Assembly: GCA_977862235.1 (NCBI GenBank)
Contig: OZ374561.1
Span: 1,426,001-1,490,000, forward strand
Reading direction: 5' to 3'
Source: Dudresnaya verticillata
Lineage: Eukaryota
Length of the DNA: 64,000 bases
Position numbers and translations under genes: made by a program
Part shown: positions 21,698 to 59,371 of the stretch, piece by piece
Layout: every line of letters begins with the position of its first letter
Position numbering within the stretch: the stretch's first letter is position 1
The notes under the pieces: model-generated
Told to the model about the DNA's origin: nothing
What the model saw: only the letters and a program-made list of their open reading frames with translations
Database searches by the model: none

Positions 21698-21882
21698 GTC
21701 GGCGGGTGGGACGGGGGTGCTGATGCAACCACGGTTGAGATGGGGCGTGTGGTGGTTTGAAGTAGGGACGTTTTCGTCCTCTTCCGGAAACGAAATTCGC
21801 CACTTTCCGTAGGTGGCTTTTTCAAGAGCGAGGAGAGACGGCACAACCGACTGCCTTTAATGTACTATCTACTACTGCAATG

Positions 21883-21959
21883 CACTCATCAAGGGTACCC
21901 TTGAGGGTCCCTTGAGGGTACCCTTGATGAGTGTTACTTTAAGGTACCCTTAAGGGTAC
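21883..21959. repeat. Inverted repeat built from tandem palindromic AGGGTACCCT units
   Basis: cactcatcaagggtaccct (21883-21901) is the exact reverse complement of agggtacccttgatgagtg (21915-21933); further copies at 21904 and 21941-21959. Confidence 0.9.
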
Positions 21960-27653: not shown

Positions 27654-27866
27654 TCGCATTGTAAGAGATATGAGACTCGTTTCCGTGAGGGTGTCTGTTT
27701 GTATTATTATAACGCCTATCTCCCTAGCATCGATGCACATAGCCATGCAGCTCTTTGGCCATACTATAGGGAGTCTCTTGCCGTTTTCCTTCAATCTGCG
27801 AACTGCAATTAGCGTTCGCGTGCTGCACGGTGTTACTCCATTCAAAGCATGCTAGCGGAAGCAGTC

Positions 27867-29489: not shown

Positions 29490-29836
29490 GGTGGCGCGGT
29501 GAGGAGCTGGTGAAGATGGCGTTGAGTGCGATGCGCGCGGCGCGCGGCAAGGGAGGGCGATGGAGACATGGTGATGGTGACCGCGCGCGGAGACAGCGGG
29601 CGGAAGGCAGAACGGGTCGCCGAAGGGGCGGGGCCGGCGCGGCGTCAGATCCGACACGTTGGCCTCTCGCGCTGTACCGAAAAACTGTAGCACGACGGAA
29701 ACTGCTGTTACGCTCAATACTGAATGTGCGTCTTCCAGCGGGCTGGCACCGGCACATCCCGACGCATCACCGCCTCGCAGACCCTGCCGCCCACCCGTCC
29801 CCGCCCCGCCCCGCCCGTCCCCAACCGACTGTCTCC

Positions 29837-30469
29837 ATGGCGATGCAGCCCTCTACCGAAACCGTCTTCGTCTGCCCTACCTGCTCCGAGGAGGTGCCGG
29901 AGCAGAACCGCACGCCGCATGCGCTGTCGTGCCAACGCCGCCAGCGGCTCGCTAGAGCATCCGCGCGGAGATGGCCACAGCCGAACCCATCGCCGCCGTC
30001 GCTGCTTCTGCAGCCGGCGCCCCCGTCAGCGGAACTCGGCACAGCGTCGTCCAAATCCCCGCCATCCGCGCCGCGCACCGCGTCGACGGCAACCCCGACG
30101 CCGCCCCCGCCGCGGCTGCAGCAGCCATGCCCGTACTGCGCGCTTCCGCTGTCGCAGCCAGCCTTCCGGGCGCATCTGCTTGAGTGCGGCGCGCGGACCG
30201 ACACATGTGAACGGTGCCAGCGGCGTGTGCGGCGGCGCGACGGCGCGCTGCACGAGCAGACGCGGTGCGCGCAGGGCGCCACGTCCGGCGCGCAGGTCCA
30301 GCGCCAGCCGCTGGTGCAGCGCGACAACCGGCGCAGACGGGCCGTGCCAGCCGCTGCGAGCACGCGTGACGAGTCGTGGGCCGGCACGGCCGTCGTCGCC
30401 GCCGCTGCTACGGCTGCCGTCGCCGCCCTTGCCGTCGGTGTGTTCTCGGGTCGCAGGAGGCGGCGGTAG
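29837..30469 (+). CDS. TRAF-type/XAF1-like zinc-finger protein with C-terminal membrane anchor
   Basis: ATG 29837; CPTC..HALSC, CPYC..HLLECGARTDTCERC..HEQTRC; hydrophobic tail followed by RRRRR. Confidence 0.8.
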   Translation: MAMQPSTETVFVCPTCSEEVPEQNRTPHALSCQRRQRLARASARRWPQPNPSPPSLLLQPAPPSAELGTASSKSPPSAPRTASTATPTPPPPRLQQPCPYCALPLSQPAFRAHLLECGARTDTCERCQRRVRRRDGALHEQTRCAQGATSGAQVQRQPLVQRDNRRRRAVPAAASTRDESWAGTAVVAAAATAAVAALAVGVFSGRRRRR

Positions 30470-30910
30470 GGGGACGGCTTTGCTTCGTTTCAGGCTCTTT
30501 TCGACTTGCAGTACTTTCGCTTTGGCGGCCTTCGCTTGACCGCGTCAGAGCATCGTCTTTCTGTGCTTAGTTTACTTTCGATACCATTAGACAAACATGT
30601 CGCGACGCCGTATGTCCACCTACGACACATTCTGCAAACTAAACTTATTTGCGCCCAGACGCGTTTTAAGACCGACCGTCCCATCTCCTGCCCTTCTCCA
30701 CGCGTCGCCGTCTCGCCTCACTACCCGCGACCCGACTGCCGCGCAACAACTGCCCCGTCCCGCTCTTCGCGTCGCACAAAAAATAAAACACTCCCCAAAA
30801 CGGTGGGTCGCCAAGTCGTCTTCAAGGTCATCTTCCACCGTGCCACAAACCGCACTCCGCAACACACAAACACGCAAGCTGCGCGCAACGCCGCGGTGGC
30901 AGTCGTTGAG

Positions 30911-31953
30911 TTAGTAGCAGTTATGCGCTTGGACGGGGGCGGGGTATCCAAGCTTCGGCGCCGCGTGGCTCATCATAGAAGTGCCAGCGACAGGGCGGAA
31001 CACAATGCGCGGCTGTGCGGGGCGGCTCCACGTGGGATGGCAGAAGGCATTACACACGTGCTGGCTGAAGAACGACACTATGCCCTCCGGGCCAAGATCC
31101 GTCACGCCAAACCGCTTGCCCAGCGACAGCACCACCGGGTCCGTCAACACCGCGCTGTTCGAGTAGATTCCGCCTTGCAGGTCGCACAACACATACTGTC
31201 CACCCGAGATGTGGTAGCTGAAGTGTGATAGTGCTTGCATCACTTGTGGCCATGGCGTTGAGTTGTCATTCCAGCCCTGTTTTGGAAACGGCCGTCAGAA
31301 CGTTGGGAGAGTTACACACCGTTAGCAGGTTAGCGAGTTGCAGTTGAGTACGCGAGATGCAAAAGTGTGCCTGGACGCGGTTATCGTACCGTGTTGGAGT
31401 TGAACTTTTGGTAGTTCTTGATGTACGGCTCCTGCAAGATCATGGACCCAGCCCAGGGCCCGCTGCCATCAGTGAACTTCCAGATCTCGGGTATGTTGAC
31501 GCGCACGACCATATCGACCAAGCCGGCGGCATTGAACTTGGTGACTATCTCAAGAGCCTTGTCGACAGCCTTGATATCATGGCGAAAGAACTCCTCGGAG
31601 AAGACGGTGCCGCTCTTGAACCACTTGCCCACGCACGGCTCGCCGGCTCGCGGCCCAGCCGTGTATTTCCCCTTGGCAACCCAACGGAACGAGCCCTGCG
31701 CGAACGGCGCCATCAGCGCGTCGGTCGAGAACTCGGCCGAGTGTGCGTTGATACGCCGCGCGTACTCGCCACGCGCGTCGCCCGCCGGGGCGGGTCGCAG
31801 CGCGGCCGTGCGCGCCACTCGCTCGCACGCCAGACACACGGGGGCCCCGCCGACATTCCCGCCACCTCCCACGCCGCCCGCGGCCGCCCACTGCGCCGGA
31901 GAGAACAACTGCCCCGGCAGCGCGCGCTGACAGCTCGAGCAGTGCCGTGACAT
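30911..31953 (-). CDS. Alpha-kinase (eEF2K/MHCK family), 2 exons: 31953-31390 and 31276-30911 (~309 aa)
   Basis: FAQGSFR, CVGKWFK, EPYIKNYQKFNSNT|GW joined across a 113-nt phase-0 GT..CAG intron (31389-31277) with CTGAC/GCTAAC branch-like sites; QALSHFSY, CDLQG, LTDP, DLGPEG, HVCNAFC. Confidence 0.93.
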
Positions 31954-32249
31954 CGCGCGCGAGCGCGCCCCGGCCAGCCGCGCGCGCCCGCCGCGGCCGC
32001 GCAAACTCGGTCGCCGCGCCGCGTGCGTGCACGCGTGGCTGTGTTCCTGTCTGCCTGCGCGACTGTGCGCACGCTCGTCAAGTCTGTGACCCACGGCACC
32101 GCCTTCCTCGCGCCCCGCCGGGTGGAAGTTGCGTCAAGCCCCATTTCAGCAATGCCGTTCAGTGGGCTCCGCGAGCCCAAATTTTATTCGCCGACGGCCG
32201 ATGCGGCATGGCATCCTCGCGTTGCGCGCAGCCGCCGCCGCCGCTGTCC

Positions 32250-32876
32250 TCACGCAACGGCATCCCGAAGGAGCCTCGCCACGAGGTCAACGGGCAGTCC
32301 CATGATGCTGTCAAGGGAGCCCTCGCGGCGGCCGAGAAACGGACTTAGCAGCGGGTCCTCAACGGTGATGCCACCGGCGCAGTGCAACACGTCCCCCTTG
32401 GCCACCAGTGCGTCGATCACGTCCTCGGGCAGCGGCCTCAGCTCCTGCGTCGCCACGTCCACGCCCTCCACCCGCCGGCCCGCACCCGTCGTCACCACCA
32501 CTGCCGTCACTGTTACCACCGGGGCTCGCGCATACCCGCGCAGGTAGTCCCTGCACTCGTCTGCGCTTCCCGGCTTCTCGCGGATCCGGCCGTCGAACGA
32601 CAGCACCTGATCCGATGTTAGCAGCACGCCGTCCGGTTCCAGCTGCGCCTGCAGCGCCGTTGCCTTTGCATTCGCCAGCGCTAGAGTCAGCGCGCTGGGA
32701 TCCGCTGTCGATCGGTCTGCATACCCCGCCGTGATGGCCCGCTCGTCGATGTCCGCCGAGAGTGACGTGAACGAAATCCACGGGAAATGCTGGCGGAACA
32801 GTGCGTGCCGGTACTTGGACGCCGTCCCTAGCAAGACATTGCGCGACTCCAGCTTCTCCAGGTCCTCCCGGCGCAT
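32250..32876 (-). CDS. maf: Maf/YceF-family nucleoside-triphosphate pyrophosphatase
   Basis: LGTASKYR, DIDER, ANAKA, LLTSDQV..REKP, HCAGG, SIMGLP; ATG 32876. Confidence 0.92.
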   Translation of the reverse strand: MRREDLEKLESRNVLLGTASKYRHALFRQHFPWISFTSLSADIDERAITAGYADRSTADPSALTLALANAKATALQAQLEPDGVLLTSDQVLSFDGRIREKPGSADECRDYLRGYARAPVVTVTAVVVTTGAGRRVEGVDVATQELRPLPEDVIDALVAKGDVLHCAGGITVEDPLLSPFLGRREGSLDSIMGLPVDLVARLLRDAVA

Positions 32877-35561
32877 CTTCTCCTGTCCTTCTGCCACTTC
32901 CTTGGCCAGACGCCTCGAATGCCACGCGAATAGTCCGGATCCGCCGTGCGGTGACGAAGCCTATAAAAGCAAATATTCCGGTAGTAGAAAAATGGCAAAG
33001 CGCTTTGCAGTGCCTCGATTCACTATGGAGAGACGAAAGCAAACATCTCAAAAGACTTTCTTTGTCATCAAAGCTGCTCCCCCCCTAGCACGGCTCCAGA
33101 CAGCCTTTGCCGAGGAAGGCTGCATTGCCCAGCAACTCTTCCCAAAAGCCCAAGGCCTGATGCCTCCCAAATGCCCCCCAAGCTGCTGCGCAAAGCTGCC
33201 GCGATGCCACGACTCGTAGCGCGACGCCGACTGCTCTCTGCTTTGATAGTTCTCTATTTTCTAAAAGCAGCTTGCAGCTCGCAATGGCTTTGCGGCACGG
33301 TCTCAAACTATACTACCAGAGTGGGTTGCAGACTGAAGCAAAATTGATGGGCATCACCGTAGTGCGTACAGAACTGCATTGCAAGCTTGAGCGTTGCAAG
33401 CAAAATTGCACAGCGTTAGTAAACCATTCAAATGCAAAGTTTACTATCTGAATATGCTGGCAACTACTTGATATCCAAGACGAGGTGCCCCTCCCCTACA
33501 TCTGCTCCATTTCTGGATACAGAAATGCTTCCAAGGCGCCCGTCCTTGGAAGCACCCCCCGTCCCCTGAAGATAACCTACAATAATAAAACACCACAAAT
33601 ACGACACAACCGACTCTTCAGCACGGCGTAGAGATTCAACAGACACAACGGAAGTTCCTGAAGAGTGCAAAAAACCTTGTTCTGTTGCTCCAGATTCACC
33701 AAGAGATTGACGCAAAGAAATGTCAGAATGTTTGCAGCTCTCAACAAAATAGAAGGCAGACCATATGCGGTACCGGACGCGTTGCTTACCGTTGTTTGCA
33801 CACCTGCGAAGAACACATCTTAACACCAACACCACAGCTCTTCAGCACCATCTCGGGTGATGAGGGTGCTGTGGTGTTCGTATTGAGAATGCCGGAAGTC
33901 GACGAGGGTGTTGATGAGCAGGCTGGTAGTCCTTAAATAGAAAAAAAAGACAATACCACCGCAAGGTGAATCGATTACAATGCTTGCACTTGTGCTACAA
34001 TTCCGTGCTGCGTTCCAGCATACAGCAAAACTGTCTGCAGCATGGAGTTTGGATGTTCTAATTGATCTGTCAGCGTGGTTTGTCTTCGGTGCCTCGTGTC
34101 GTGAGTAGGTAGTGGACGTGGCAGATGCGGTCCCATCATTACCGATGGGTGACGACCTTGAAGATAACTTGAAATGCGCTGGTGTCGCCAGGTATTGTGC
34201 GAACAGGCCGCTCTGCAACTTGCAATTGATCCCGGCGTGAATAAATTTGAAGCAATACCTCTCTGCGTGTTCTTTGACGGCGGTTGAAGCTCAGATCTCC
34301 TAAGGCCATTCGCAGACGGGCATGTGGCAAGCGTGCCAGGACACCACGTTCACCATGGTCTAATTTGTCTTCGCAGTGGAGAGGTTGAACTCCCCCTTCT
34401 TTGCTCTAATTTTTCATGCGGACTTGTTAGCCAAATCACGGTTCCCACTGTACCGTGGAAAAGCTCTCCATAGGTCTTCGAATCTAACGCTTCACCTCTA
34501 AACTTGCCAGCAAACTTCTTTTCAGAGATATCGCGATGACTTTCTTGCGCCCAGCACAAAGCTTGGAACAAGAAAAAGAAGTAAGCTTGAACTAGGCGCG
34601 CAAGACAATCATCACTATCATCAGCTTAGAGCAAAACAGTATTTGACATAAGTGTTCTCGTCGCACTGTGGGGCAAGCGGAAATCCGAAATCCGGAACAT
34701 ATCAGCGCCGCAGTGCAACCTTTGATATCACAAGCTTTTTGAATGCTTTACCTGTCTCTGCGCAGAGTGGTCAGGGCCGACCGGTCCATCTGCATTTGTC
34801 GGATTGCCGCAACCTGCAGTCGTGCGACAAGCAAGTTGTCGTCGTGTCCTACTCGGTCCATTATCGCGCCCATCGGACAAGGTCGACAAGTTGTACGTAT
34901 CGATGTGTACAGACACTTCCCTCTCAGAACATGCCTCTGTGGTCCACCAGAGATAAACAATTCGCAGCCCTTACTAAGTTCCCATGCCGTGCGCAAAGTA
35001 TCTACATCGTGTTATGGAACAATTCTGTTAGCGGCAATCTTTGATCACTACTGCACCGAACAGCCAGACCAAAAGTGTACCATACATCGCACCGGATCAC
35101 ACATACAGCATCACCATCCTGCCTTGAGATATGCAAGTGCTTTCAGGTATTGCCCTCAAAGAAGCGCTTGACAGTCAGGATCAAAAATGTCCCGGCAAAG
35201 TTGAGACCGAGGTATCGACGCCACCTTGGCTCTGAATGGCATCGGCGCCAACATGCGCCGAATTATTTCGTGGTGCCTACTTCGAGCAGATGCTGTATCA
35301 CCCGTCCAGAAGCCACCTCCAAAGGTCGCCCCAACGCACACTCATTGACCTCACCGCGATTGCGCTCACGGCCCCCTTCTCTCTTTCTGGCGACATGCAG
35401 AGACTAGTTACATTCTCCACCTACTCTGTACAAGTTGATCCGCGATAATTGAATACTGTACTCGATAATTGTATAATTCCGGTACTTGCATGATAGATCC
35501 GTCTCCCACCACGGGAGCCTTCAACATTTAACCACAAATCAGTCTCTATTCAAACTCGCTA

Positions 35562-36073
35562 CAGTCATCTCTCGATAAGAGGAACCAGTCCGTGGACCCA
35601 AGTTGGTTCCTCTAATAAGGGGGTTTCACTTAGGAAAAGGTAGAAAACATTTTAATATCAACCTGAAGAGAGTAAACAACCCTCATACCGCACAGTACTT
35701 AAAAAATCTACTGGAAGTAGTTCTCTATCCTAGTCTGCCTGGCAGATGTGCATGACTCCGCCTTGACAGCCCGCAGAGTCTGCGCAATACAACGTCTAAA
35801 GGGCGGCGTGTCCTCCCCATATCTCTCCGCAATTCGCTTTGCCAGCAGTAGTATCCGTAACTGCTCATCCCTCGACGGAAAATCAGCAAGGATATCTTCA
35901 TGGTCCTCTGGTTCTTCTGCCACATTCCTGCTTTCTAAAATAGATTCCAATAAAGCTCCTTCGGTGAATTCTTGAACGACTTCGTCTTCCCCAACTGGAT
36001 TCAGTAAATCAGGGATTCTTATATTCGAACGTGCAGGAGGTAAATTCCTCAGTACCCCTTGCAACTCGTCCCT
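35562..36073 (-). mobile_element. 3' end of a pogo/Tigger-like (Tc1/mariner superfamily) DNA transposon
   Basis: TA|CAGTCATCTCTCGATAAG terminus, subterminal inverted repeat AGAGGAACCA..TGGTTCCTCT; ORF remnant (36073-35708) with acidic stretch ending QTRIENYFQ*, the C-terminal PIP-box typical of pogo transposases. Confidence 0.75.
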
Positions 36074-38157
36074 CCTTAGGCGACGACTCTTTGTCAACCG
36101 CCACAGGCGCAAGAGTTAGAATCAATATCCGCCTTAGACGCTACACAAGGAAGCTCGCTCGCCTTTGGAGGTGGAGCATCCTCAACCGCCTTGGGCGAAG
36201 TAGGGGACCCCATTAACCGCCAAAGGCGTTGAACGATCAACATCCCTCAAGGACGAAGAGGCTACTGGAGCCTGCAGAACTGCCGTAGGCGCTGTCACCG
36301 CACTCGCCTTTGGCGGACTTTTGTTAACAACGTCAGTAGACGCAATGGCGGACGAACCCACACCACCCGCCTTAGGCGAAAAAGGCTTTTTCGCCACTCC
36401 GTCATTAGACGCCGCACCTTCGTCTTTAGACGGCACAGTCGCGACGACGCCCGACGCCGGCATCGCAGCAGCTCTGGGCTGCAGAGCAGCCAGCAGCGAG
36501 TGCCCGAGGGGCGTCGTCGATGATCCGCCCGACCCGTCAGTGGGGACACCGGTGGCTCGCAAGAATGCGAGCACCGTGCGGCGCTGCTCCTCAGTCCATA
36601 CGGGCATTGCAGAAGAGCCATGCGCGCCGTCAGCGACATTAGACAAGCCGCCTGGAGGCGTAACTGCAGCCGCAGAGTTCTCTACTGGCGCAGCCATAAT
36701 GGCATCACCATCATCTTCATTGATGGGTGCCGAGAGATCCAACGGCGCAACCGACGGCAAGCCAACAGGCACAACAACCGCCGGTCCTACCGCCCCTGGC
36801 GAAGTCGTCGCAGGGGCTGTTGCCCCCGCAGTAAGCTTAACCGCCAGTGGCGAAATGACATTCGTCCCGGACGGGTTAACCGGTCCGCTGTTAGCGTGGA
36901 ACGCATCCTCCGCCACCAAGGCGCTCAAGTGCGGCGGGAAATCACCCGCGAAGTTGCAATTCTTGCGCAACCCGCGTGGGTGGTTCGCTGGCGTGAAGCG
37001 GTCCGTACGACGATGGCTCTCAGCGATGTTCTCCGTCGTAAGACGTTCGTAAGACATTTGGTCGACGGGTTGTACCACGCCCAACCGCCAACGGCGGAAT
37101 GGCTTCTACTCATCGCGTAACGCGGACGGTTTGCCTTACGGCGACTGTTCCTCGGCGGCACTACAGTTGGATCGTCCCAGTTGACGCTATCCGCCACATG
37201 GCGTAGATCCCAAAACCCTTGGCAATTCTTGGCACCACCCAGCACTTCGGTCAAGTCGAGCCCACCGAGGAGGCTGACCACCCGTGGCGGTATGTAATAG
37301 AGGCGGAAGGTGTCATACACCTCCCACATCCATGCGTAGGTCACATTAATGACCCACTCGGTGAAGAATACGATCCAACTTCGGGAGTACGGATCCGTCC
37401 GCAACTCGGAGCCGATATACGTGACACACGGAGGCACTTCAGCCGCAAAGCCCTCGCAGAATTCAAAGTCCCGCCACAACGGCGGGACACGAATGAACCA
37501 GTGCGGCAACTTTTCACGCTCAATGCGATCCACCTGCGTATCTTGATACGGCACGAAAACGCCTTTGCGGCGGCGCGTTTTGCACTCCCAACGGACGCAG
37601 CGCTCCCAATAGAAGGTGCCCGTCCTATGGAGGTATCGGAAATCCGCTTTCAAGCGTACCCCAAGGAGATTAGCCTCCTGAAGCACCCGCGGCTCAGCCG
37701 AAACAGCCACATGGCTCAGTGACAACGCCCCAAGACGGTCCCCATACCCAACCTCATCATTGGTGCGGCACTGCCCTGCGTCTAATGCAAAGATGGCGGG
37801 CGTCAATACCGACCCCGGGTAGCGGGTAAACCGCCGATACACGTCAACGACGAAACGCGCATGTGCATCTGCACGCGTCTGGCCGGCGGCAATACGCAGC
37901 CAGCCCCTCGGAATATCGCACCGATGGCGCCATTCGTTCGTCCACACGACGGCCAGGGGCAACTCCCCTGGCAAAAATCCGCTCACAGCGTAATGGGTGA
38001 TGAGATCCTCATGTCGCAGGGCCTCCTGGTCGAACCAGGGGGCCCGCGAGAATAAGCGCGCATCGTTGCGGGGAGTCCTCCCGACAAAGTCGAATGGTGA
38101 CGGATACACCGGCGCCGCCGAAGGCGTAGCCACTTGCAGGCCGTTGAATGGCGCCAT
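36074..38157 (-). pseudogene. Disrupted copy of the antisense accessory ORF (ORF-X) in A'
   Basis: Near-identical protein to 39818-42124; frameshifted by an 11-bp tandem duplication (37036-37057) and a deletion near 36200; truncated at 36074. Confidence 0.88.
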
Positions 38158-38445
38158 TACTTCTGAGACGCTCAACAATCACACGCCGCTGGCGGAGTTC
38201 GTACGATACTTCAACAACGGTCTTGACTCCGACATTGAGTCAATTACGCCAAAGGTGGAAACAAACAAACACACGTCAACGACGTTGGACCAAACGACGC
38301 CAAGGGCGGAACTCAAAGACACGCCCTAGGCGGTGGGTACACGAACGCGTGCACAGAAACGACGTAAAAGACGGGGTTTTATGCACGTCACTGGCGAAGT
38401 TAGTCAACTGTACGTCTTCGACGGGAACCGTTTTTACGCCAAAGG
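36074..38445 (+). mobile_element. Relic fragment A' of an A-family Gypsy element (antisense-ORF region and leader only)
   Basis: Reverse complement aligns with ~39527-41915 of element A; no gag, pol or LTR of its own remains here. Confidence 0.9.
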
Positions 38446-39356
38446 TGTAGTGCAAACGTCGATGACGGGCACCGCCGAGCAGTTCGGGGCTCGGTGGGTA
38501 GCGACGCCTGCGGCGATGAGTGGCCTCGCCGTGGGCGTCTGGTGGTAGAGCGGTTAACTCGCCTTGGGCGGACTGTAAACGCCCTTGGCGGAAAAGAAGA
38601 ACAAAAGGAAACAGAAAGGGAACACGTCGAGGATGGGTAGAGAGGTGGAAGCACGGAGGTAGACGCTTAGCCGTAGGCAGCGGTAAGGTACGCGCGTGCT
38701 GAACGGGGAAGTCTGGACCAAGGCCGGCTTGCTGGGGTTTACTGTGACGTCTCAGACGGATCAACTAAGTACAGGATTACCTAGCGCGGCGACGCGTGCG
38801 TAGGCGCCGCGCGGGAACTTGGGACACGTGTTGTCCCGAGGCGCGTCTGACAGATCCGTACGTCATGCAGCCGCGCTCCTGACGGATCACGCGTAGCGTC
38901 CCCGTTCGAGTCCTTACACCTACACGTGGACTATTTCCTTACAGCCGCATGCGCCTCAGGGCGCGTGCGATCTTGATTCACGCCAATCCCGATCCAGTCC
39001 GGATTCGGGCCAGCCATGCGAGTGTGCCAAACTTACAGGCGCGGGCCTTACACTTCGTAATCCCGATGTCGGATCCCGATGTGGGATCCCGATTGGATCC
39101 GGATTCGGGCCACGCTTACAGCGAACGTTCCTGCCACTGCGCCACGCGCGCACGCGTGGCGCCGTACAGTACCCCGGGTTCAGGCGTGCGGTCTGCACGC
39201 CAAGCGAGCCGTTCTGGCCCGAGTGGCCAGCGGCATGCGTCGGTGACGTGTTTGCGCCGCGGGCGGGTTGAGCGCGCCGTTGGCGGTCGTCCGTCGGTAG
39301 ACGCTTCATATCAAACCGCTTGAAAGCGAAAATGGGGGAACCCCCCCGGCACTACA
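38446..39356 (-). repeat. Inferred 3' LTR of element A (911 bp)
   Basis: Perfect 8-bp terminal inverted repeat TGTAGTGC...GCACTACA; preceded on the minus strand by PPT GGAGGGGG (39367-39360); left edge coincides with loss of A/A' homology; partner LTR not in window. Confidence 0.78.
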
Positions 39357-39817
39357 CGACCCCCTCCGAAAACGCGAACACCTCAACCTGCTTCAACCTG
39401 CCAGCTTCCCCGCGCCTGCGTCTCTTCCAGTGCCGATCGTGCTTGTCACCCGCGTCTTCGCGCCTGCGTTTGCCCGCCCTTGGCGTTGGTTGAGCCCCGT
39501 CAAAGACGCACGCGCAGTTTCCCCCGCCCTTGGCGTAGGAACATTTCCCGTCGAAGACGTGTCGTTGACTAACTTCGCTAGTGGCGTGCGTGAAACCCCG
39601 TCGTTGACGTCGTATCGGTGCACGCGTGTGTACGCTTATCGCCTAGGGCGTTTCTTTGAGGTCCGCCTTCGGCGTCGTTCAGTCTAACGTCGTTGACGTG
39701 TGTTGTGCGTGCTTCCGCCTTTGGCGTAGTGGGCTTGACTTCGAAGTCCCAGAACCGTCATTGACGTATCGTGTGAACTCCGCCCGTGGCGTGTGATTAC
39801 TCAACGTCTTGGACGCA

Positions 39818-42124
39818 ATGGCACAGTTCAATGGCCTACGAGTGGCTGCGCCTTCGGCGGCGCCGGTGTATCCGTCACCATTCGACTTCGTCGGGAGGAC
39901 TCCCCGCAACGATGCGAGCTTATTCTCGCGGGCACCCTGGTTCGACCAGGAGGCCCTGCGACATGAGGACCTCATCACCCATTACGCTGTGAGCGGGTTT
40001 TTGCCAGGGGAGTTGCCCCTGGCCGTCGTGTGGACGAACGAATGGCGCCATCGGTGCGCCATTCCGCGGGTTTGGCTGCGTATTGCCGCCGGCCAGACGC
40101 GTGCAGATGCACATGCGCGTTTCGTCGTTGACGTGTATCGGCGGTTTACCCGCTATCCTGGGTGGGTATTGACGCCCACCGTCTTTGCATTTGACGCAGG
40201 GCAGTACCGCACTAATGGCGAGGTTGGGTATGGGGACCGTCTTGGAGCGTTGTCATTAAGCCATGTGGCTGTTTCGGCTGAGCCGCGGGTGCTTCAGGAG
40301 GCTAACCTCCTTGGGGTACGCTTGAAAGCGGATTTCCGGTACTTACATAGGACAGGCACCTTCTATTGGGAGCGCTGCGTCCGTTGGGAGTGCGAAACGC
40401 GCCGCCGCAAAGGCGTTTTTGTGCCGTATCAAGATACGCAGGTTGATCGCATTGAGCGGGAAAAGTTGCCGCACTGGTTCATTCGTGTCCCGCCGTTGTG
40501 GCGGGACTTTGAATTCTGCGAGGGCTTTGCGGCTGAAGTGCCTCCGTGTGTCACGTATATCGGCTCCGAGTTGCGTACGGATCCGTACTCCCGAAGTTGG
40601 ATCGTATTCTTCACCGAGTGGGTCATTAATGTGACCTACGCATGGATGTGGGATGTGTATGACACCTTCCGGCTCTATTATGTGCCGCCACGCGTAGTCA
40701 GCCTCCTTGGCGGGCTTGACTTGACCGAAGTGCTGGGCGGTGCCAGGAACTGCCAAGAGTTCTGGGATTTACGCCATGTGGCGGATAACGTCAACTGGGA
40801 CGACCCGGCAGCTGTGCCGCCGGGAAACCGGCGCCGTAATGCAAACCGTGCGCGTTACGCGATGAGTAGAAATCATTCCGCCTGTGGCGATTGGGTATGG
40901 TACAACCCTTGGACCAAACGTCTTACGACGGAGAATATCGCTGAGAGCCACCGTCGTACGGATCGCTTCACGCCAGCGAATCACCCACGTGGGTTGCGCA
41001 AGAATTGCGACTTTGCGGGGGATTTCCCACCCCACTTGAGCGCCTTGATGGCGGAGGAGGATGCGTTCCACGCGAACAGCGGACCGGTTAACTCGTCTGG
41101 GACGGACATCGTTACGCCTATGGCGGTTGAACTTTCTGCGGGAGCGACAGCCCCCGCGACGATTTCGCCAGCGGCGGTAGGACCGTCGGCTGTTGTGCCT
41201 GTTGGCTTGCCGTCGGTTGCGCCATTGGATCTCTCGGCGCCCGTCAACGACGGTGATGGTGATGCCATCATGGCTGCGCCCGTGGCGAGTCCTGCGTCTG
41301 CAGTTCCGCCTCAAGGCGGAGTGTCTAACGTTGCCGACGGTGCGCATCGCCCTTCTGCAGTGCCCGCATGGACTGAGGAGCAGCGCCGCACGGTGCTCGC
41401 ATTCTTGCGAGCCACCGGTGTCGTCACTGACGGGTCGGGCGGGTCCTCCACGACGCCCCTCGGGCACTCGCTGTTGGCTGCTCTGCACCCCAGCGTTGCT
41501 GCGGTGCCGGCGTCGACCGTCGTTGCGAATGTGCCGTCTAACGACGAAGGTACAGCGTCTAATGACGAAGTGGCGCAGAAGCCGTTGTCGCCTAAGGCGG
41601 GTGGTGCGGGTTCGTCCGCCATTGCGTCTGCTGACGTTGTTAGCAAAAGTCCGCCAAAGGCGAGTGCGGTGGCAGCGCCTACGGCGGCTCGGCAGGCTCC
41701 GGTAGCCTCTTCGTCGGTGACGGATGTTGATCGTTCAACGCCTTTGGCGGTTAATGCGGTCCCGTCACCGGAGGTGCCGGGGCCGTCGACTTCGCCCAAG
41801 GCGGTTGAGGATGCTCCACCGCCAAAGGCGAGTGAGCTTCCTAGTGTAGCGCCTAAGGCGGATAACGACTCTAACGTTGCGCCTATGGCGGTTGACAAGC
41901 AGTCGTCGCCTAAGGCGGATTGTGAGACAGGTGCGTCGCCAGCGGCGGATGTCGCGACTTCGACAGCGGTGGTTGTGGCGGGTCCCTTGCGGTCCGTTCC
42001 TGCCCCTGCTGCGAGCGCACCGTCGGTGACGGAAGACGATCTCTACGAAGAGGCGTTAAGGGAATCCGCCAATGGCGTTGGGGATGATGCCCCATCTGAG
42101 CCGTCTGCGACGAAGAAGCCGTAA
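39818..42124 (+). CDS. Antisense accessory ORF-X of element A (768 aa; Trp-rich domain of unknown family plus Ala/Pro/Ser tail)
   Basis: Uninterrupted ORF opposite to pol, starting ~460 bp from the 3' LTR; homologous to 57555-59237 over ~390 aa. Confidence 0.88.
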   Translation: MAQFNGLRVAAPSAAPVYPSPFDFVGRTPRNDASLFSRAPWFDQEALRHEDLITHYAVSGFLPGELPLAVVWTNEWRHRCAIPRVWLRIAAGQTRADAHARFVVDVYRRFTRYPGWVLTPTVFAFDAGQYRTNGEVGYGDRLGALSLSHVAVSAEPRVLQEANLLGVRLKADFRYLHRTGTFYWERCVRWECETRRRKGVFVPYQDTQVDRIEREKLPHWFIRVPPLWRDFEFCEGFAAEVPPCVTYIGSELRTDPYSRSWIVFFTEWVINVTYAWMWDVYDTFRLYYVPPRVVSLLGGLDLTEVLGGARNCQEFWDLRHVADNVNWDDPAAVPPGNRRRNANRARYAMSRNHSACGDWVWYNPWTKRLTTENIAESHRRTDRFTPANHPRGLRKNCDFAGDFPPHLSALMAEEDAFHANSGPVNSSGTDIVTPMAVELSAGATAPATISPAAVGPSAVVPVGLPSVAPLDLSAPVNDGDGDAIMAAPVASPASAVPPQGGVSNVADGAHRPSAVPAWTEEQRRTVLAFLRATGVVTDGSGGSSTTPLGHSLLAALHPSVAAVPASTVVANVPSNDEGTASNDEVAQKPLSPKAGGAGSSAIASADVVSKSPPKASAVAAPTAARQAPVASSSVTDVDRSTPLAVNAVPSPEVPGPSTSPKAVEDAPPPKASELPSVAPKADNDSNVAPMAVDKQSSPKADCETGASPAADVATSTAVVVAGPLRSVPAPAASAPSVTEDDLYEEALRESANGVGDDAPSEPSATKKP

Positions 42125-43335
42125 CGTTGTTGGATCGTTAAGCACGGTTAGCAAACGCGAGAGCGCGTGTGGTGTCGCTTTGCCTGCCCCGTGGTGGGGC
42201 GGCAAGCGAGGGATTCATACGTCATAGACGGTTAGTGTCGCGTCTCACGACGTAGGTCGTAGTGGAAGGTCATGTGGGCACGGGGGTTACCCTCGTTTGT
42301 GAAGCCCGAATAAACTTGACCGTTGTTAACACGTAGTTGCTTGTGTGTTCGCTTGATGTAGAGCGCTGCGATAGCGAATAGTATGTAGCCGACGGGTCGC
42401 GTTCGTATAGACGTTGTTGTTTTCTGTCCGCTGTAGTAGCGTTTGCGTAGAAGCTTGGGGCGGTGCCGCCTTGGTGGCGTTTTTCTCCCTTCTTGATGCC
42501 GCTACAGTAGCGTAACCCCTTTCTGGGAGGGTCCATTTTCTCATGCCGACTTAGTCGTTTTGTTGCTCAAATTGTTTTTCCGCTTGTTGAGCGAATGTGT
42601 AGTTGGGGGAGCCGTTTGTCGGTAGGCTTTTCGTCTTTGACGTAGGGCATGTTGGGTTAGCGTCGGGGACGGTTAGCTTGGCGATGCGCCGCGCGTGGGG
42701 CGCGTTTCTTGCGACTCCTGGGCGTGGCTGCCGCGCCCAGCGGCGGAGTCATTTTTGCGACTAGCGCGTCGTGCACGAAACGTAGCCCAACTCCATCTTC
42801 GACGACTGTTTCTCCTCTCGTGTTTGCGGCGACCCGTTTTTCGGCTTGAGACACGTCGTTGATGTTCGCGGGCGTCACCCTCGAGGTGGTTGCGTGTGCC
42901 GCCCGTAAGGGTGGCGGGTTTCGGACTTGGTCGCGTGGGTGGCGCGCCTGGGCGAGGACGTCGGAGACGGTCGATCGCGTCCGGGCTTGGTTGCCTCGTG
43001 GGCATTCGTAGTGCTGGGCACACACACACTTGTCAGGTTCTCGTTTGTTGGGCGCCGCCGCCTGGCTGGTGCCCGCGTTATTATTTTCGCATTAAACTTT
43101 TTCCTGTCGTTGCTGCCCGATTTCGTGTGGTGCGTGCGCCCTCCACGCCTTCTGATTACTGTCAGCCGTTCTGTCCTTACGGACCCCCTCCGAAGAGGGT
43201 TGCCTATTCGCGTGTCGCCAACCCAATCGTCCTTGATCCGGTTGATTACAGCCCCCGTCGTCCGTAACGAGTGCACGTCCGTCTCAATCCGTATGTGGCG
43301 GGTGTTTTCGCTTCCAGCGTCCACCCTGACTAGGG

Positions 43336-46300
43336 TTACCCGCGTTGCGCGTCGTCGATGTTTGGCGGCAGGCGCGTGTGCTTCTGACGGTGATACCGCA
43401 CAACGTGCGATCGCGGTAGACTGGACACTGGTTCCCAAGTATTCGCTGAAGCGGGGTATCCAAACCACTTGACGCGGTAGAGGATCTCGCCGTCTTCTGC
43501 GTGTGCGTGCGACTCAACCCGTTCGATAACGTACTCCTCCGCGCTTGGAGCGGTCGACGTAGGCTCCTGCCGTTCTAGCGCCTTGAGCGGCTCACTTCGT
43601 TGCGTGATGGGCGTCTGCACCGGTTCGGCAAACCGTACTCGACGAGTCGATCACCTGAGGCGCTGGGTCGGTGCCCCGAGGGCTTGCGTAGCGGGTTGTG
43701 GTTCGTCGCTTTTGCGTACTGGTTCCTCGCTTCTAGCGGCATCTTTCGCGTTAGCGCGGTCGTCCTCATCGGCAGTCGATGCGCTCGAAGCGGGACCTAC
43801 CTTGGTAGCCGGCGAAGCCGAGGTTGCGTGTCCCATTCGCGTACGGATGCCGGGACCCTCCTCCTCGTCGGAGACGGATTGCGAGACACCGTCGTCGGGG
43901 TTAGCAGCAAAGGGCGAGAGCTCTGCTAACCCGCGGCTTCGTGGTCGTTGCATTCATTCGCTCCTGCGAGTCGTTCGTGCGGCGCGGCGTCCCTGTGCCT
44001 CCTGCCGGGTCCGCCTGCGGCGTGTCTGGGGTTCCTGCTCCTTCGTCGGTTGACGTGGGGGCCGGTGGTCCCGATACGTCAGGTGATCCCGGTGGTTGCA
44101 CGGTTGCGGGGGCGTTGTGCCCTGGTGGGGTTGGCGCCCATACCACGCGGTCTCGGGATAAGCATTCGCGTTCGCCACGTCCCTTGTCGACGGTGACTGT
44201 CCCGTCGTCGACGTGTGTTACTCGATACGGTCCATCCGCTACAGGTGCGAGCTTGTGCTTGCGCTCTGAGCGATCGGTGCTCCCGCCGCGGGCGAAGTAT
44301 TCTTTCCGCACGAATGCGAAGTCTCCCACAGCGATGTTCTCCTTCGATTTCCTCAGACGAGTATCGAAGTTCCGTTTGTAACGCGCCTGCGTTTTCGCGA
44401 GTGGCGCGTTAGCGGTTCCAATCAATGCGGACAGCCAGGTTCGCCATTTGGTGTAGTACTGTCCGGCAGTGGGCACGCTTTCAAGCGACGGCTCCGCTTC
44501 CAGCGACAATGGCCGCGGGGGCTTAGATAGCACCAACTCGAATGGAGCGAGGTGGGTAGACGAGTGCAGTTGCGTATTGTATGCGAACGTCAGAGCATCG
44601 GTGAACAAATCCCAGTCCCTGGCGTAGTGACGCAGGGAGGCGAGGATGGTTCGATTGAATCGTTCCACTTGGCCGTTACACTGCGGGTGGTATGTAGTGG
44701 TGAAGAGATTCTCCACCCCTAAAATGCGGCAGACGTCCTGGAACAACTTGGCTACAAACTGCGACCCGTTGTCGGACAGCAGATTCTTGGGTGGGCCATA
44801 CACAAACACCCAGTGTCGAACAAACGCCTTAGCGATTTCCAATGCCGTAATCTTACGTAAGGGAACCGTCCGGACCAGCTTTGAGAAGCGGTCCACGATG
44901 ACGAGTAGGAACTTATTCCCCCGCTTAGTGCGTATGAGCTCCCCGAGTATATCGATGGACACAAACTCGAGAGGCTCGGTTGCTGGGAACAGTTTCATCT
45001 CCTTCACGTTCTTTCGCATCAGTACCCGGTTCTTCGCGCAAGTAACGCAATTGCGGACGGTCGCGTAACAGTCCACCGACATAGACGGCCAATAATACTC
45101 GCGTCGAAGCGTATGGTACAGCTTCCGCCCTCCGGGATGTCCTGCTAATTTAGCATGATGCCGGAGGTGGAGCAATCGAACGCGTAACGCGGATGGTACA
45201 ACGACTTGGGGTCGGGCCTCGACGGTCCGGACCAATAGTCCCTGTTCGTCCGTTTCAAACGGTAGGTTGTCTCCGTCGTCTAGACGTTTCCGAATCTCAG
45301 AACAGTACTGGTCGCTGCCCTGAGCATGCACCAACTCTTCATGCGTCAATTGACGGAGGAGCACTTCATCCGCCGGTGGCGCGCTGGTAACCAACATCTG
45401 GTCAAATTCCTCGAAGTCTCGTTCGGAGAAATCGACTTCGCCCTTGACGTTTGACGTATCGCTTTCTGCGTGAGCGTGTCCTCTGACGAGAGGTCCTCGT
45501 CTTTGACGCAGCTTCCGTGGTAACACGGGATATCATCGTCGATTGGTTCGACCGTTTCGCCGTTCGTCTGTAGACGTGAGAGGGCATCTGCCTGAGTATT
45601 CAGGTACCCCTTTTTATACTTCACGACGAAGTCGAACTCAGAGAGGCGAAGGCCCCATCTCATCAACCGTCCCGAGGGGTCGCTGATTTCCATGAGCCAC
45701 CTCAACGACGAATGGTCCGTATAGACTACGAAGGACTCCATCTGAAGGTACGGTCTCAACGTCGTGATCGACCAGACTACTGCCAAGCATTCCTTTTCGG
45801 ATACCGAGTAGTTACGCTCCGGAGCGATTAACGAGCGTGACCAGAAGCCAAGCGGCTTCCGTTCGCCGTCAGGCTGCGTTTGAAAGAGTGCGCAGCCAAC
45901 TTGGTACTCGCTCGCGTCACAATCGACGGAGTACGGTAGTCCTTGTTGTGGCAGCGCCAGGATGGGCGGGTGAGTCACCGCTTCGACAAGCGTACTGAAT
46001 GCCCGAGCTTGCTCCTCGGTGCACGGTTGTAACCGGAAGTCTTGCTCTTTCCTTAACAATTTGTTGAGGGGAGCGGCGACATGCGCGTATCGCGATACAA
46101 ACCGTCTATAGACGTTGCATAATCCGAGAAAGCTCCGTAATTCCTTCTGGTCCCGCGGATGTTTGGCTTCGCGTAACGCGGCTGTGACCGTACGGTCTAC
46201 TTCCAATCGTCCCGGACATATCACATGGCCGAGATAGTTGACGGTCGGGGTGAAGAAGTCACACTTGGTTAACTTCAATGTCACCCCGGCCCGATGCAAG

Positions 46301-47514
46301 GTCGAAAGGATCTCGTCAACATGACGGAAGTGACTGTCGATATCATTCGAGAAGATGATCACATCGTCAAGGTAGACGAGGCATGAGCGCCACTTGTAAC
46401 CAGCAAGCAGGATATCGAGGGTCCGTTGGAACGTGGCCGGTGCGTTAGTAAGGCCGAAGGGCATACGTTTGTAGCGGAACAATCCGGCATGGCACGTGAA
46501 CGCTGTCTTGTCGCGATCTCGCGGGTTAATGGGCACCTGCCAGTAACCACTATTGCAGTCTAGGGTGGTGAAGATGTTCGCTTCCCCTAGACTGTCAATA
46601 CATTCATCGATTCGCGGGAGAGGGTACGTATCTCGTACCGTTACTGCGTTCAAGCGACGGTAGTCAACGCAGAAGCGGAGTGTACCGTCCTTCTTGGGAG
46701 CGAAGACGACCGGCGACGCCCATGGCGATTGGGCGGGTTCGATAACCCCCTGACGCAACATGCGATCCACCTCCGCTTGAGCGAGTTGCCTTTGCTTTGG
46801 GCCAGCGCGATAAGGCGGGGATGAAATCGGCCTGGAGCCGGGGAGCAAGTCAATATAGTGCTCCGTGGTTGCGATTTCTCCTAATGAACCGTCCCACATC
46901 GACGAGTACCTGCGCAGCATCTCCTTCAGCCGTCCTTGATGTTCGGCTGAGAGATGACTCAGGTCCAACTCGTCCACTGACGGAGGTTTCGCTATGGTTG
47001 CTTCGATCGACTTAGCGAATGTATCCGGCTGTGCCGTTACTCCATCATTCGTTTGAAAACGGAAATCTTGATTCGCCTCTTCCTCCGCTGCCTGCTCCTT
47101 GGTGATACCTAGGACACCGGCCAGACTTATGTGACTGGGGAACACTGCTGTGGGATGTGGCAACGCGGTAGCAACGACTTGTCCCTTGACGAGCGCTTGC
47201 GGACGCGGGGAGAAGTTTGCGACGAGAATCCTGAACACTCTCTGCGGCTCTACTTGAGCGACTCCGTTAGTAACGGCCAAAGCTTGCCGATCATATAACG
47301 TTCCAAACGGTTGGATGGTAATGACCCCTGCTCGCTCGGTCGTTACCGAGATCCACTTTTGCGCCTGCGGCGGGATGATCGTTCGTTCCGCAACGCGTAT
47401 CTTGGGCGACGTTCGTCCTCCGGCCGTGCCGTACTCCTGTTCCGTTGGCAACGGGGGGTACGACGAGGGACGGCGCAGCGGGCGGCGCGTTATAGGGACA
47501 CGGGTCCCGTCGTC
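43336..47514 (-). pseudogene. pol: pol of element A (RT-RNaseH-integrase-chromodomain), frameshifted
   Basis: [51 protein letters not shown], chromodomain YVIERVESH..YRVKWFGYP..TWEP; frame breaks near 45.5 kb and 43.6-44 kb. Confidence 0.93.
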
Positions 47515-48290
47515 TGTGGCGCAAATCGCCTTCGCGCCCTGTTGAAGAATTCTTCTTACTGCCGTCGATCGCGGCTCACGCGACTGCCGGACGACGGACG
47601 CACAGCGACCGTTTCGTGCGGATCAACCGCTGTGCGGGTGATTGAGCTCAGAGCCAATTTCTGTAATGAGCTCTGGCACCACGCGCACGCACCAGCAATG
47701 CTAATGGGGAAATGCCTCTGTAAGGCGCCCGGCCTGACAGTACGCGGCGCCCTCTGCCAGCAAGGATGGCCCCGCAACGCGACAGCGCGTACACGTGCAC
47801 ACGTGCGCCTCCTTGGCGCACACCTTTCAGCCGCACTACCGCTAGGCTGACAGTTGATATTTGTAGATAATTATAGAATTGCGCGCGCCACGTATTGCCA
47901 AGTGGCGCGCCCCCTTCCCTTACTTTAATCCGCCACCAAGGCGCACCCGCCTCCTACATAGTATAATAGGGCCCTGAGGTGCGCCCTCATACAGTAAACG
48001 GCCAAGCTTGGGCCCAGCGAGACGTACCCTCCTACCCTATCGACTCCCTCCTTAGGTTGGACTCCAGTACATCCGCTACCCATCTTCATCGTACAGAATC
48101 CTGTTTTTCTCTTGTTTTTTCCCTGTTTTCTCTTCCCTTCTAGGGTAACCCCCTTTCTCGGTCTTGTAGTGTTTTACAGTCGCACTACGGGGCTATTCCC
48201 CTGCTCTACCGCTACTACCTCACCTGCTACCGCCAGGCCCCCGAACCGCCTGAGGTGCACCCTCAATTCTACCGAGTGGATTGCAGCACG
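47515..48290 (+). repeat. 5' LTR of element B
   Basis: Direct repeat of 59372-60147 (about 4 internal substitutions by eye); ends TTGCAGCACG instead of TTGCACCACA. Confidence 0.95.
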
Positions 48291-50611
48291 TGCGCAGGCA
48301 AGTCCTGCAGTCCAAGCCGCTTTTTCGGCAATACCCAATGAGGCGGTTCCTCGCATTCCCCCTCGGTTGAGGTCTTACCTCCTGCCCCAGCCGGGACTCT
48401 CCCGACTGGGCAAGAGCAAGGCAGGCAGCCGGCACCTCCGCCGCCGCTGCCCAATCCACCGCCGCCGATTTCGGCATCAGTTCCGCCTCCGGTGGAGCCA
48501 CCCACAATCCAAGAGGAAGCACCTCGTGTTGCCTTCATACACGGGACAACTATTCCCCGAAGTGCAATTCAAGAGGTATGCCTCATGGAAGACCAGGCTT
48601 TTGCCGCCCGGCTGTCGCGTCAGATAACGGACAGCTTGGCTTTGGTCAACCAACGTATCGACGAGGTTAGTACTCGACTTGACCTCGTCCTGGAGAATCC
48701 TCCACAGAACCACGCGGACCTCGCCGTCGAGGTCCGCACACTTCGAGGAGACGTTAACCGCCTCCTCGAAACCTACGGGGCTACTCCCGCAAGGGGGCCC
48801 CGTCCGAATCCCCCAAGCCTACCCGCGCAACTTCCGCTCGATGACCGCATTACGCGGATTGCCGACCGCTTGGAGCGCCTAGAGGGCATATGCCTCAACG
48901 AGCGCGAACCGCCCCTGCCTCCCGATGACGGAGGCGCGAACAGAAGACAAGTCGAATTCGACAGTCACGCTCGACATGGGGACACTTACCCCAAGGACAG
49001 TTGCCCTTACGGGTGTACGGACCACCCTCATGATGACGACTACCGTCAAGACCGCCGTGAATCACGAAGTCAAAACCGTCATCATACCTCAACGCGGAAT
49101 ACCCGCAATCGCCGTCACCACCGCCACGGCTACGGAACTTCCTCCCGGTCGGCGTCCGACGACTCGGACTCAGACCGCTCCGACGGAGAAGTTTATGGAA
49201 ATCCCCGTCGCGATGATGGTATACGACGCAAGGGGCCGCGGTATAAGCATCTCAAGGAGCTGAAACCAACGAACCCCTTGCACGACCAATTGCTGTCTTA
49301 CAGGCACTACCGCCTACAGAATACGGAACAATCCCGTACAAGCCGACAGACCGGCAAGATCAAGGACCAGATCAAAAGACTGGAGTTAACCATGAAGGAT
49401 TGTTCCTTTAATGGGGAAGACCCGTGTTGATTTTGGAGTTTCTCTCCCGGTTAGTCGACGAAGCCGACACTCTCGACATGTCGGAAGCCCAGGCGTTCAT
49501 CGCCTTGCCCTACTTCTTACGCGGAAATGCCGCTACTCAATTTCGCTCCGTCAAGACCGCTCCGTCCCGTTCTAATGGAGGAGTGTCCTCATGGCCCGAA
49601 GCTGTGCAGTATCTTCTGCGGACGTACGCGACACCGAGCGCGCTACGTGAGGCAATCCTCGAGCTCCGCGCTCTCCGGCAGAACGCGGGCGAATCGGGAA
49701 CACTCTTCGGGATGCGAGTCTCGAAAGCGTGTAACCGATGTGGCAATGTCCACAAGGAATGGGAGAAGATGACGTACTTCATCGACGGTCTGGACCCGAG
49801 CATCCGCTCGCTGGTCGCCTGGTATCGAGAGGAAACTCCTCGTCACGAATTGTCGTTTGAACGACTAGTGCATTATGCACAAGATGAAGGTGAAGCTCAC
49901 CGTGGAAGAAATCGCGCACCACGCGCTGGACAAGACCAACTCGCGGGCCGCACCGCAACTACAGGAGGACGTCGTCCAGGACGCGGAAATTCCGCTATGA
50001 TGGCTGAGTCTTCTATCGAATTCCGAGACGGAAGTGGAGTTCCACGTAGGCAGGTGGGCGAGCAGGATGCCGAGGTGCACCTTTTGTACCCGGACGCGGC
50101 ACTGCTGTCGTCCGACCCACCTACCGACTCACAAGTAGAATCCTACGGAAGCGAAGATAATGCGCTTCTCATGCGCTCTCGTCAAGTCCCGGCTCCGCGC
50201 ATCCCATACCAGGAGCATTCACCTGGTATGAAACGCACACGGCCGGGCTGTAAAGATAGGTGAAATCCCCAAAGGAACTTCGGTCCCAAGCAGACAATCA
50301 TCTGTCACATTTTCTACAAGCCTGGGCATGTTTCACCCGAATGCTTCTTAGCATGGAAGGACTACCTGAGGATTATCCTCAATTATAAATCGCTCAGTGC
50401 GGTCGACCGCGAGCGTGTGCCGGCTACGTCCTACATGAAGGCGAAAGCACAGGCACAATACGATGAGGGAAGTCCTCAAGGTCGACCCCAGGTACCGCCC
50501 CCTGTGGTACCCCACACTAGCGAACGCCACCCTCAGGCGTTCGCGCCCGTTGGACAGCCCCCTTCGAATGGGCGCGACGGACGAGCGGACACCCGGAATT
50601 CGGAAAACTAG
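48291..50611 (+). pseudogene. gag: gag of element B (disrupted)
   Basis: Pro-rich N-part, FNGEDP/VLILEFL (frameshift ~49422), SWPEAVQYLLRTY, FIDGLDPSIR, in-frame TGA at 50261, degenerate knuckle CHIFYKPGHVSPEC, stop TAG 50609-50611. Confidence 0.85.
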
Positions 50612-59361: not shown

Positions 59362-59371
59362 GGGGGGGAGA
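59362..59371 (+). other. Polypurine tract of element B
   Basis: GGGGGGGAGA immediately before the TG of the 3' LTR. Confidence 0.9.

Follow-up and report, generated by a model that had tools for sequence, protein, structure and literature searches.

A family-specific mini-hairpin pattern in nested chromovirus retrotransposons of Dudresnaya verticillata, with an antisense-encoded protein as its candidate reader

Among the closest described systems, the Mutator-like VANDAL transposons of Arabidopsis carry many copies of a short, family-specific mark together with an accessory, anti-silencing VANC protein, in which a conserved domain is combined with a variable part made of tandem peptide motifs, and their marks differ between families. 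According to the accessible part of the source, the target of VANC21 is YAGTATTAY, a fixed and non-palindromic word of duplex DNA whose copies are arrayed in a single orientation and lie chiefly within tandem repeats outside coding sequence (PMC5735166). Antisense open reading frames (ORFs) between pol and the 3' long terminal repeat (LTR) are described, again in an accessible part, for the plant elements Retand, Grande and RIRE2, where they contain a TRP28 domain and have been proposed to bind DNA and to regulate the element (PMC11963269). Here, we analyzed 64,000 nucleotides of Dudresnaya verticillata (assembly GCA_977862235.1, contig OZ374561.1, positions 1,426,001 to 1,490,000; this whole stretch is called the window), in which an LTR retrotransposon, element A (38446..47514, resuming at 60147..61040), carries an antisense gene, ORF-X (39818..42124), and is densely marked by short self-complementary sites. 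These sites follow a hairpin grammar that differs between element families, and ORF-X is a candidate for the protein that reads them.

The locus resembles VANC/VANDAL in combining many copies of a family-specific short mark, different from family to family, with an accessory protein built of a conserved domain and a region of tandem peptide motifs. As far as the accessible VANC/VANDAL reports go, it is unlike them in that the element is an LTR retrotransposon and not a Mutator-like DNA transposon, the protein, judged by Pfam searches, is apparently unrelated, and the mark is a covarying self-complementary shape, present in pol as much as elsewhere. Since element class and motif type differ, the locus does not belong to the VANC/VANDAL system. 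ORF-X shares the position and antisense orientation of the Retand-type ORFs, whereas Retand belongs to a flowering-plant non-chromovirus lineage and ORF-X lacks a Pfam or TRP28 match and resides in chromodomain-bearing chromoviruses; the accessible part of the Retand source mentions no hairpin code (PMC11963269). The dispersed packaging signals of single-stranded RNA viruses and hepatitis B virus likewise consist of numerous small stem-loops that have a recognition feature in common and are scattered through the genome, coding sequence included, yet in the available part of their description they act on one RNA strand via loop motifs, whereas here G·U is not favored and loops run both ways (PMC6281560). 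Hairpins made by template switching have similarly perfect arms and compensatory double changes, but those described in the accessible part of the source are sporadic in RNA genes, while ours are element-wide and family-specific, with a fixed stem and unpaired flanks (PMC8794818). In the literature covered, outside of which lie subscription journals, Repbase reports and supplements, we found no account of the hairpin pattern or of ORF-X; the accessible part of PMC13155455 does not mention Rhodophyta.

The original prediction described 28 CGCC-N3-GGCG palindromes between 38446 and 42124 and took them for binding sites of a dimeric protein, and every one of these coordinates indeed holds an exact match. 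In the entire window, the motif occurs 49 times, against 2.86 ± 1.42 in 100 dinucleotide shuffles (maximum 7). Element A at 38446..47514 contributes 33 sites, five of them in pol, against shuffle means of 0.6–0.9, and 0 of 200 shuffles preserving 2- to 5-lets reached this number. The enrichment, which the prediction had exposed to a higher-order background, hence persists through 5-let shuffles. Another 12 sites lie in A', a truncated relative of A, and 2 in the continuation of A after 60146, while the nested element B contains none across 12.6 kilobases (kb); host DNA at 1..33000 is at background, with 2 sites against 1.3–2.2. Among CGCC/GGCG pairs separated by 0–11 nucleotides in A, the 3-nucleotide spacer alone is prominent (33 vs 0–4). 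GC or CpG composition as the origin of the sites is ruled out by the let-preserving shuffles, and these, together with synonymous-codon shuffles, also led us to reject a codon or peptide-repeat origin. The sites do not form a simple tandem repeat, in agreement with the earlier description, and that reading is rejected; a spacing of 27–30 bases is found in the ORF-X tail only, where the xP(K/M/L)A peptide repeats are the palindromes read in frame.

CGCC-N3-GGCG is merely the commonest spelling of a more general pattern, CG-NN-loop(3-5)-N'N'-CG. In an unbiased scan of A for half-sites facing their own complement across a spacer of 3, CGCC was found 35 times, CGTC 25, CGCT 9 and CGTT 5 times, whereas the mixed combination CGCC/GACG occurs once, compared to 35 CGCC/GGCG and 25 CGTC/GACG sites. 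Of 82 CGYY-N3-RRCG sites, 74 are symmetric, while half-site permutation yields 27.6 (maximum 44 in 20,000). When the outer CG/CG is required, sites in which the two inner pairs both obey Watson-Crick rules number 96, 43, 22 and 16 for loops of 3, 4, 5 and 6, respectively (about 8 expected each), and 10 for loops of 2, and each wobble or mismatch class of the inner pairs stays at background level. Furthermore, the bases directly flanking the stem are able to pair in 7 of 96 sites of A (26.5 expected) and in 0 of the 35 CGCC sites, in 8 of 59 sites of B (17.3 expected) and in 18 of 192 sites of a related contig, L003 (52.6 expected). As pairing is avoided in the flanks, the stem length is fixed. 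Covariation, the lack of mismatch classes and unpaired flanks are together not what a dimer with independent half-sites on duplex DNA predicts. Element B follows a different code, G-NN-G-loop(4-5)-C-N'N'-C; the two CpGs emphasized in the original prediction thus hold for family A but are a trait of that family only.

In its general form, the pattern pervades the element. CG-NN-(3-4)-N'N'-CG occurs at 10.5 per kb in the conserved ORF-X domain, 10.4–11.1 in integrase (IN) and reverse transcriptase (RT), 16.5 in the LTR and 24–28 in tail and leader, compared to 1.4 in host DNA, so that the reported scarcity of sites in the conserved domain and pol is true of the CGCC spelling but not of the general code. 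The A code runs at 9–28 per kb throughout LTR, leader, ORF-X, spacer, IN, RT and protease/gag, falls to 0–2 per kb in the larger parts of B and is back after B's end; in the larger parts of B, the B code runs at 7.5–12 per kb. A weak excess of A-code sites in B's pol (52554-55811; 10 vs 3.5, p 0.01) is perhaps an older shared code. Measured against synonymous-codon shuffles, A's RT holds 24 sites instead of 3.6 and B's pol 30 instead of 3.5, whereas 0 of 4 host genes show such enrichment. Encodable CG-N-C sites are realized in 7 of 8 cases in A's RT, as opposed to 1 of 14 in B's pol, and in five of six elements the non-coding spacers are no denser in sites than pol. Despite RT cores that are 80% identical, A and B carry different marks, which bears out the predicted family specificity. 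Also the claimed retention of sites in A' holds, with conserved arms: A and A' differ at 16/280 in arms and 20/105 in loops, and in the leader alone arms differ at 5/72 versus 41/187 (p 0.004). Of 31 multi-base differences between A and A', 9 fall in arms, no more than the 32% expected at random.

The pattern recurs in related elements, which we found by RT search in a metagenome-assembled genome labelled as uncultured bacterium (G001; contigs L003–L008, L010, L011 and L027–L046). Its 16 RT-bearing contigs are mostly eukaryotic gypsy-type retrotransposons, many with chromodomains, and are probably contamination from a eukaryotic host. By hidden Markov model (HMM) score, nine RT contigs rank nearest to A and B; they group in the RT tree (support 85/99), with A and B beside them on an open fork, and four further contigs were placed in the clade by integrase similarity. 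The tree excludes L034 and L011, the latter entering the code comparison only; L004 (1.2 kb) was omitted, as were L009, L012–L026 and L047–L049, which are sub-stretches of contigs analyzed whole, and the clade contigs possibly represent multi-copy families collapsed in assembly. All 15 members of the clade (A, B and 13 contigs) show 9.2–18.9 excess perfect stems of 4 base pairs (bp) per kb with loops of 3–6, whereas 13 other RT- or integrase-bearing contigs reach just −2.2 to 4.8 and host DNA 0.9–3.3 per kb. Outside the clade, retroelements show small excesses of other palindromes, TAC-N-GTA in L030 (8 vs 0.9) and GAA-N-TTC in L032 (9 vs 1.5). Within it, L006 and L007 use C-NN-C with a loop of 4, L003 and L005 use C-based stems with loops of 4–6, and L035, L038 and L040 have a hairpin excess without a clear template. 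L008, L027, L031 and L033 carry perfect stems of 7–15 bp; in this long-stem mode, which includes L036 and L037, dozens of such inverted repeats lie within gag-pol, conserved RT motifs included, and in L031 all but one of 25 long-stem loops include CG. Pfam Chromo matches were obtained in L003, L005, L006, L007, L027 and L036, and the clade is one of Ty3/gypsy chromoviruses, likely of red algae.

ORF-X follows the mark within this clade: an antisense gene of its family is present in 6 of 6 short-stem elements that reach far enough past pol, as anticipated if mark and gene travel together. L003, L006, L007 and L010 hold antisense or stand-alone ORFs that share homology among themselves and, at the profile level, with ORF-X, with 97.9% and E 4.5e-13 in the profile alignment of the L003, L006 and L010 homologs. 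By eye, these three end in basic runs resembling nuclear localization signals, and the end of L005 resembles the C-terminus of an ORF-X-type ORF. The four ORFs (L003:10134-12692, L006:7213-10233, L007:6695-8119, L010:3-2447) represent a second subfamily, in which a coiled coil follows the domain and basic C-terminal runs replace a two-helix mini-domain. L001, a closer ORF-X relative, contains 7 stems of at least 6 bp in 1.5 kb, with a slight excess of 4–5-bp stems (24 vs 16.7; 6 of 200 shuffles reach this value).

On which nucleic acid does the mark act? In the short-stem families, read on the gag-pol strand, G·T pairs number 851 against 801 expected and A·C pairs 950 against 962; in the long-stem families, 111 perfect 8-bp stems face 4.1 expected, and G·T (28 vs 9.6) increases to a similar extent as A·C (30 vs 11). 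Loop profiles mirror their own reverse complement (pooled r 0.84), as illustrated by the commonest loops of L007, TGAA (9) and its reverse complement TTCA (6). Strand-symmetric loops without wobble preference point to a mark that acts at the level of DNA and not of a single RNA strand. Thermodynamic selection on RNA was rejected since the real flanks do not help folding and G·T is not favored.

ORF-X consists of a conserved domain of about 390 residues and an acidic low-complexity tail. The domain has an isoelectric point of 9.3, is rich in Arg, Trp, Tyr and Phe, and contains near-invariant residues (W41, D126, R131, E135, E191, R195, E232, Y247 and W261); between A and A', it differs at 44 synonymous and 30 nonsynonymous codons. 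These sequence properties, basic, aromatic-rich and constrained, are compatible with nucleic-acid binding. Relatives of the domain form 430 clusters at 50% identity, at least two of which contain named homologs, from the red algae Gracilariopsis chorda and Agarophyton chilense; none were found among viral contigs and genome contigs, and metagenome contigs yielded 1 locus out of 165 candidate stretches. Pfam searches with ORF-X and 80 aligned members (E 0.01) returned no family and one weak low-complexity match, a profile search against PDB sequences gave three weak matches, none interpretable, and the ESM Atlas no usable match. The AlphaFold2 model of the domain is confident (predicted local distance difference test, pLDDT, 93; predicted template modeling score, pTM, 0.91). 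Foldseek of a 411-residue model against PDB and BFVD found nothing at E<=0.001, and the best VIA-align Z-score among 48,161 chains was 2.7, which, with the whole model and not single lobes searched, does not prove a new fold. For the tail mini-domain, modelled as two helices from the L001 copy and considered as a possible small helical domain of the HeH, LEM, SAP or Rho-N type, the Rho N-terminus (Z 4.0, root-mean-square deviation (rmsd) 3.1, 40 aligned) and the emerin LEM domain (Z 3.7, rmsd 2.7, 39 aligned) were matched, both tied with dozens of unrelated chains. A homodimer prediction, run without the alignment and with the protein's own fold uncertain, scored 0.00.

With this in mind, we consider that selection and not mutation probably keeps the hairpin sites. 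A structure-specific reader is favored because stem length is fixed, flanks are unpaired and loop words are private to families, and also because A's RT uses nearly all of its encodable sites, spacers are mostly not denser and multi-base changes are unclustered. Given selection, ORF-X would probably be this reader; it is preferred as candidate since no other accessory gene was found in the clade and its sequence has changed much faster than that of RT (about 36% vs 80% identity between A and B). ORF-X may bind a hairpin or small cruciform on the DNA of its own family, stabilizing marginally stable 4-bp stems in melted or supercoiled DNA, and by marking its own copies it would keep those of each family active. 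Families could in this way tell their own copies apart by the lengths of stem and loop and by key bases. If ORF-X is the reader, the chances are about even that, by analogy to VANC, its purpose is anti-silencing or trans-activation of its own family; single-stranded complementary DNA (cDNA) handling is an alternative purpose. As a whole, the prediction from sequence that ORF-X reads a hairpin or cruciform barcode on its own family's DNA, with VANC-like logic, is tentative, and we place it somewhat below an even chance. The regulator or anti-silencing module first suggested therefore stays plausible, given a family-specific mark that does not stem from codons, conserved arms and an antisense ORF-X, but not as a protein on a fixed-sequence duplex dimer site. 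More ambitious, and in our judgment doubtful, is a structure-based identity barcode written across the whole genome of each element, with an element protein of new fold that reads DNA shape and de-silences its own family only. Such reading would involve the exact stem length, the unpaired flanks and a few base contacts, and barcode and reader would co-evolve between families in a VANC-like arms race fought with hairpins or cruciforms in place of sequence words.

The foremost alternative is a mutational signature, in which the RT of this clade folds nascent DNA back (template switching), or single-stranded DNA hairpins are repaired from one arm, so that quasi-palindromes are perfected over many cycles, the sites are functionless and ORF-X is a bystander. 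Template switching is able to create and fix perfect stems, according to the accessible part of PMC8794818, and would readily account for perfect Watson-Crick arms of arbitrary sequence, as in the 7–15-bp stems of L008, L027, L031 and L033, for strand symmetry, and for fixed basal and closing pairs around a variable middle (G-NN-G, C-NN-C), which resemble quasi-palindrome correction. Yet it predicts pairing beyond the stem at the chance level of ~25% and not avoidance, it leaves private loop words and differing codes from 80% identical RTs unexplained, unconstrained spacers should exceed RT in site density, which they mostly do not, and multi-base changes between A and A' show no preference for arms. 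We thus regard this explanation as unlikely, albeit one to be taken seriously.

Less probable still is that the hairpins are selected and read by Gag, RT or integrase, as dispersed packaging or cDNA-handling signals favoring the element's own genome. Sites every 60–100 bases over the whole element recall the dispersed packaging signals of RNA viruses (PMC6281560, in its accessible part), and loop words exist; one-strand RNA signals, however, would be expected to permit G·U and to use loops in a single orientation, and neither is seen, an objection that touches the RNA but not the cDNA-level form. A host structure-specific protein or silencing machinery might instead select the hairpins, with families diverging to avoid or exploit it, and one shared factor would suit the clade-wide constant density; A and B have sharply different codes in one genome, though, and the pattern is missing from host genes as well as from the other retroelements of this source, so that this alternative is improbable. 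By far the least probable is the originally proposed homodimer, or a few paralogous dimers, on a fixed duplex CGCC-N3-GGCG. One spelling and one spacer are strongly enriched, and another element of the window, C, does show a plain word with independent half-sites. Mixed half-sites at background, enrichment of spacers 3, 4 and 5 alike, flanks that avoid pairing and relatives whose arms comprise dozens of sequences nevertheless largely refute a classical duplex-dimer site.

Several observations weigh against ORF-X as reader of a selected hairpin mark. No motif or fold match names an activity for the protein. Both the hairpin trait and ORF-X belong to a single clade, so their co-occurrence counts as one event, and four long-stem RT contigs end short of any ORF-X position. 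Near-constant density, arbitrary arms and the lack of wobble fit template switching as well, sites in A and B are no more regularly spaced than random, and compensatory pairs between families are few (7/12, 7/15 and 7/13 of double changes, compared to 11/20 in a control set). As to the DNA level, G·T pairs are slightly overrepresented on B's sense strand at loop 4 (11 vs 3.6), and one flank preference of L003 is lopsided (23 vs 10 of 31). The median folding probability of A stems is lower with real than with shuffled flanks, both as RNA (0.11 vs 0.17) and as DNA (0.36 vs 0.58); with predicted folding marginal and unaided by flanks, the stems would need a protein or melted DNA. We know of no precedent for a 4-bp cruciform arm in chromatin.

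The marked elements lie in a set of four nested insertions (36071-64000), with A inserted in the leader of A' in opposite orientation, B in A's pol and C in A's gag. A' (36071..38445, minus strand) is 88% identical to A and has a frameshifted ORF-X and 34 A-code sites. The LTR of A (38446..39356, minus strand) has TG...CA ends and 15 A-code sites, 6 of them CGCC-N3-GGCG. A polypurine-tract-like run (39360..39367, minus strand by its sequence, as is pol) adjoins it on the inner side, which identifies the 3' LTR of a minus-strand element. The originally described LTR and ORF-X do carry the sites, the layout being refined in that the LTR is a 3' LTR and ORF-X is antisense to pol. The non-coding leader 5' of ORF-X (39357..39817, plus strand) harbors the densest cluster (13 sites, 28 per kb). 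ORF-X itself, on the plus strand, encodes 768 residues from its first ATG, including the small two-helix tail domain (41366..41500) common to many A/B-type homologs. A non-coding spacer (42125..43100) with 9 A-code sites and no CGCC-N3-GGCG separates it from the end of pol (43336..47514, minus strand; RT, RNase H and integrase), which has 39 A-code sites in IN and RT. The minus strand of A matches RVT_1, RT_RNaseH, Integrase_H2C2 and rve in Pfam; a protease motif was read from the sequence, and a chromodomain in a shifted frame (~43370-43540) was recognized by eye, without a Pfam match. Judged by its protease-RT-RNase H-integrase order, LTR, polypurine tract and chromodomain, A is a Ty3/gypsy chromovirus LTR retrotransposon.

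Element B (47515..60146, plus strand) is a chromovirus with a Pfam Chromo match, 775-bp LTRs that are 99.4% identical and a 5-bp target duplication; its ORF-X homolog (57555..59237, minus strand) is likewise antisense and 34% identical to that of A (E 7e-90). In the remainder of A (60147..61040, minus strand; protease and gag end), the A code resumes with 14 sites (15.7 per kb). Element C or another insertion (61041..64000, plus strand) has no hairpin excess and a 758-residue ORF unrelated to ORF-X. It contains 50 YGGCCR words (17 per kb vs 1.6 in host DNA) with independent half-sites (24/10/9/7), spaced more regularly than random (P 0.007), and mini-hairpins are in deficit; C is possibly a second, classical sequence-word system. 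The host genes at 3444-31228 are compact, with long open frames, and encode a sodium:solute symporter, a protein kinase, PPR, bromodomain and JmjC proteins and a TRAF-type zinc finger; a near-perfect 51-bp palindrome (21883-21933) lies immediately 5' of the PPR gene. A GC-rich (0.63), otherwise unmarked kilobase at 9001..10000 with 8 A-code sites is possibly a relic of an A-like element.

In summary, the hairpin pattern is new as a pattern; the mechanism we infer. Under any mechanism, ~16 excess perfect hairpins per kb in RT and integrase genes, with a spelling that shifts between close families, are surprising, and A and B supply the matched probes and proteins needed to test the matter directly. 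If mutational, the pattern would be a template-switch signature of a reverse transcriptase, extreme in degree and tunable by family. If selected, it would give the antisense ORFs of LTR elements, long unexplained, a function that can be tested, and it would point to shape-based self-recognition by a transposon and to a large family (430 clusters at 50% identity) of programmable hairpin readers whose fold is predicted with confidence but has no match.

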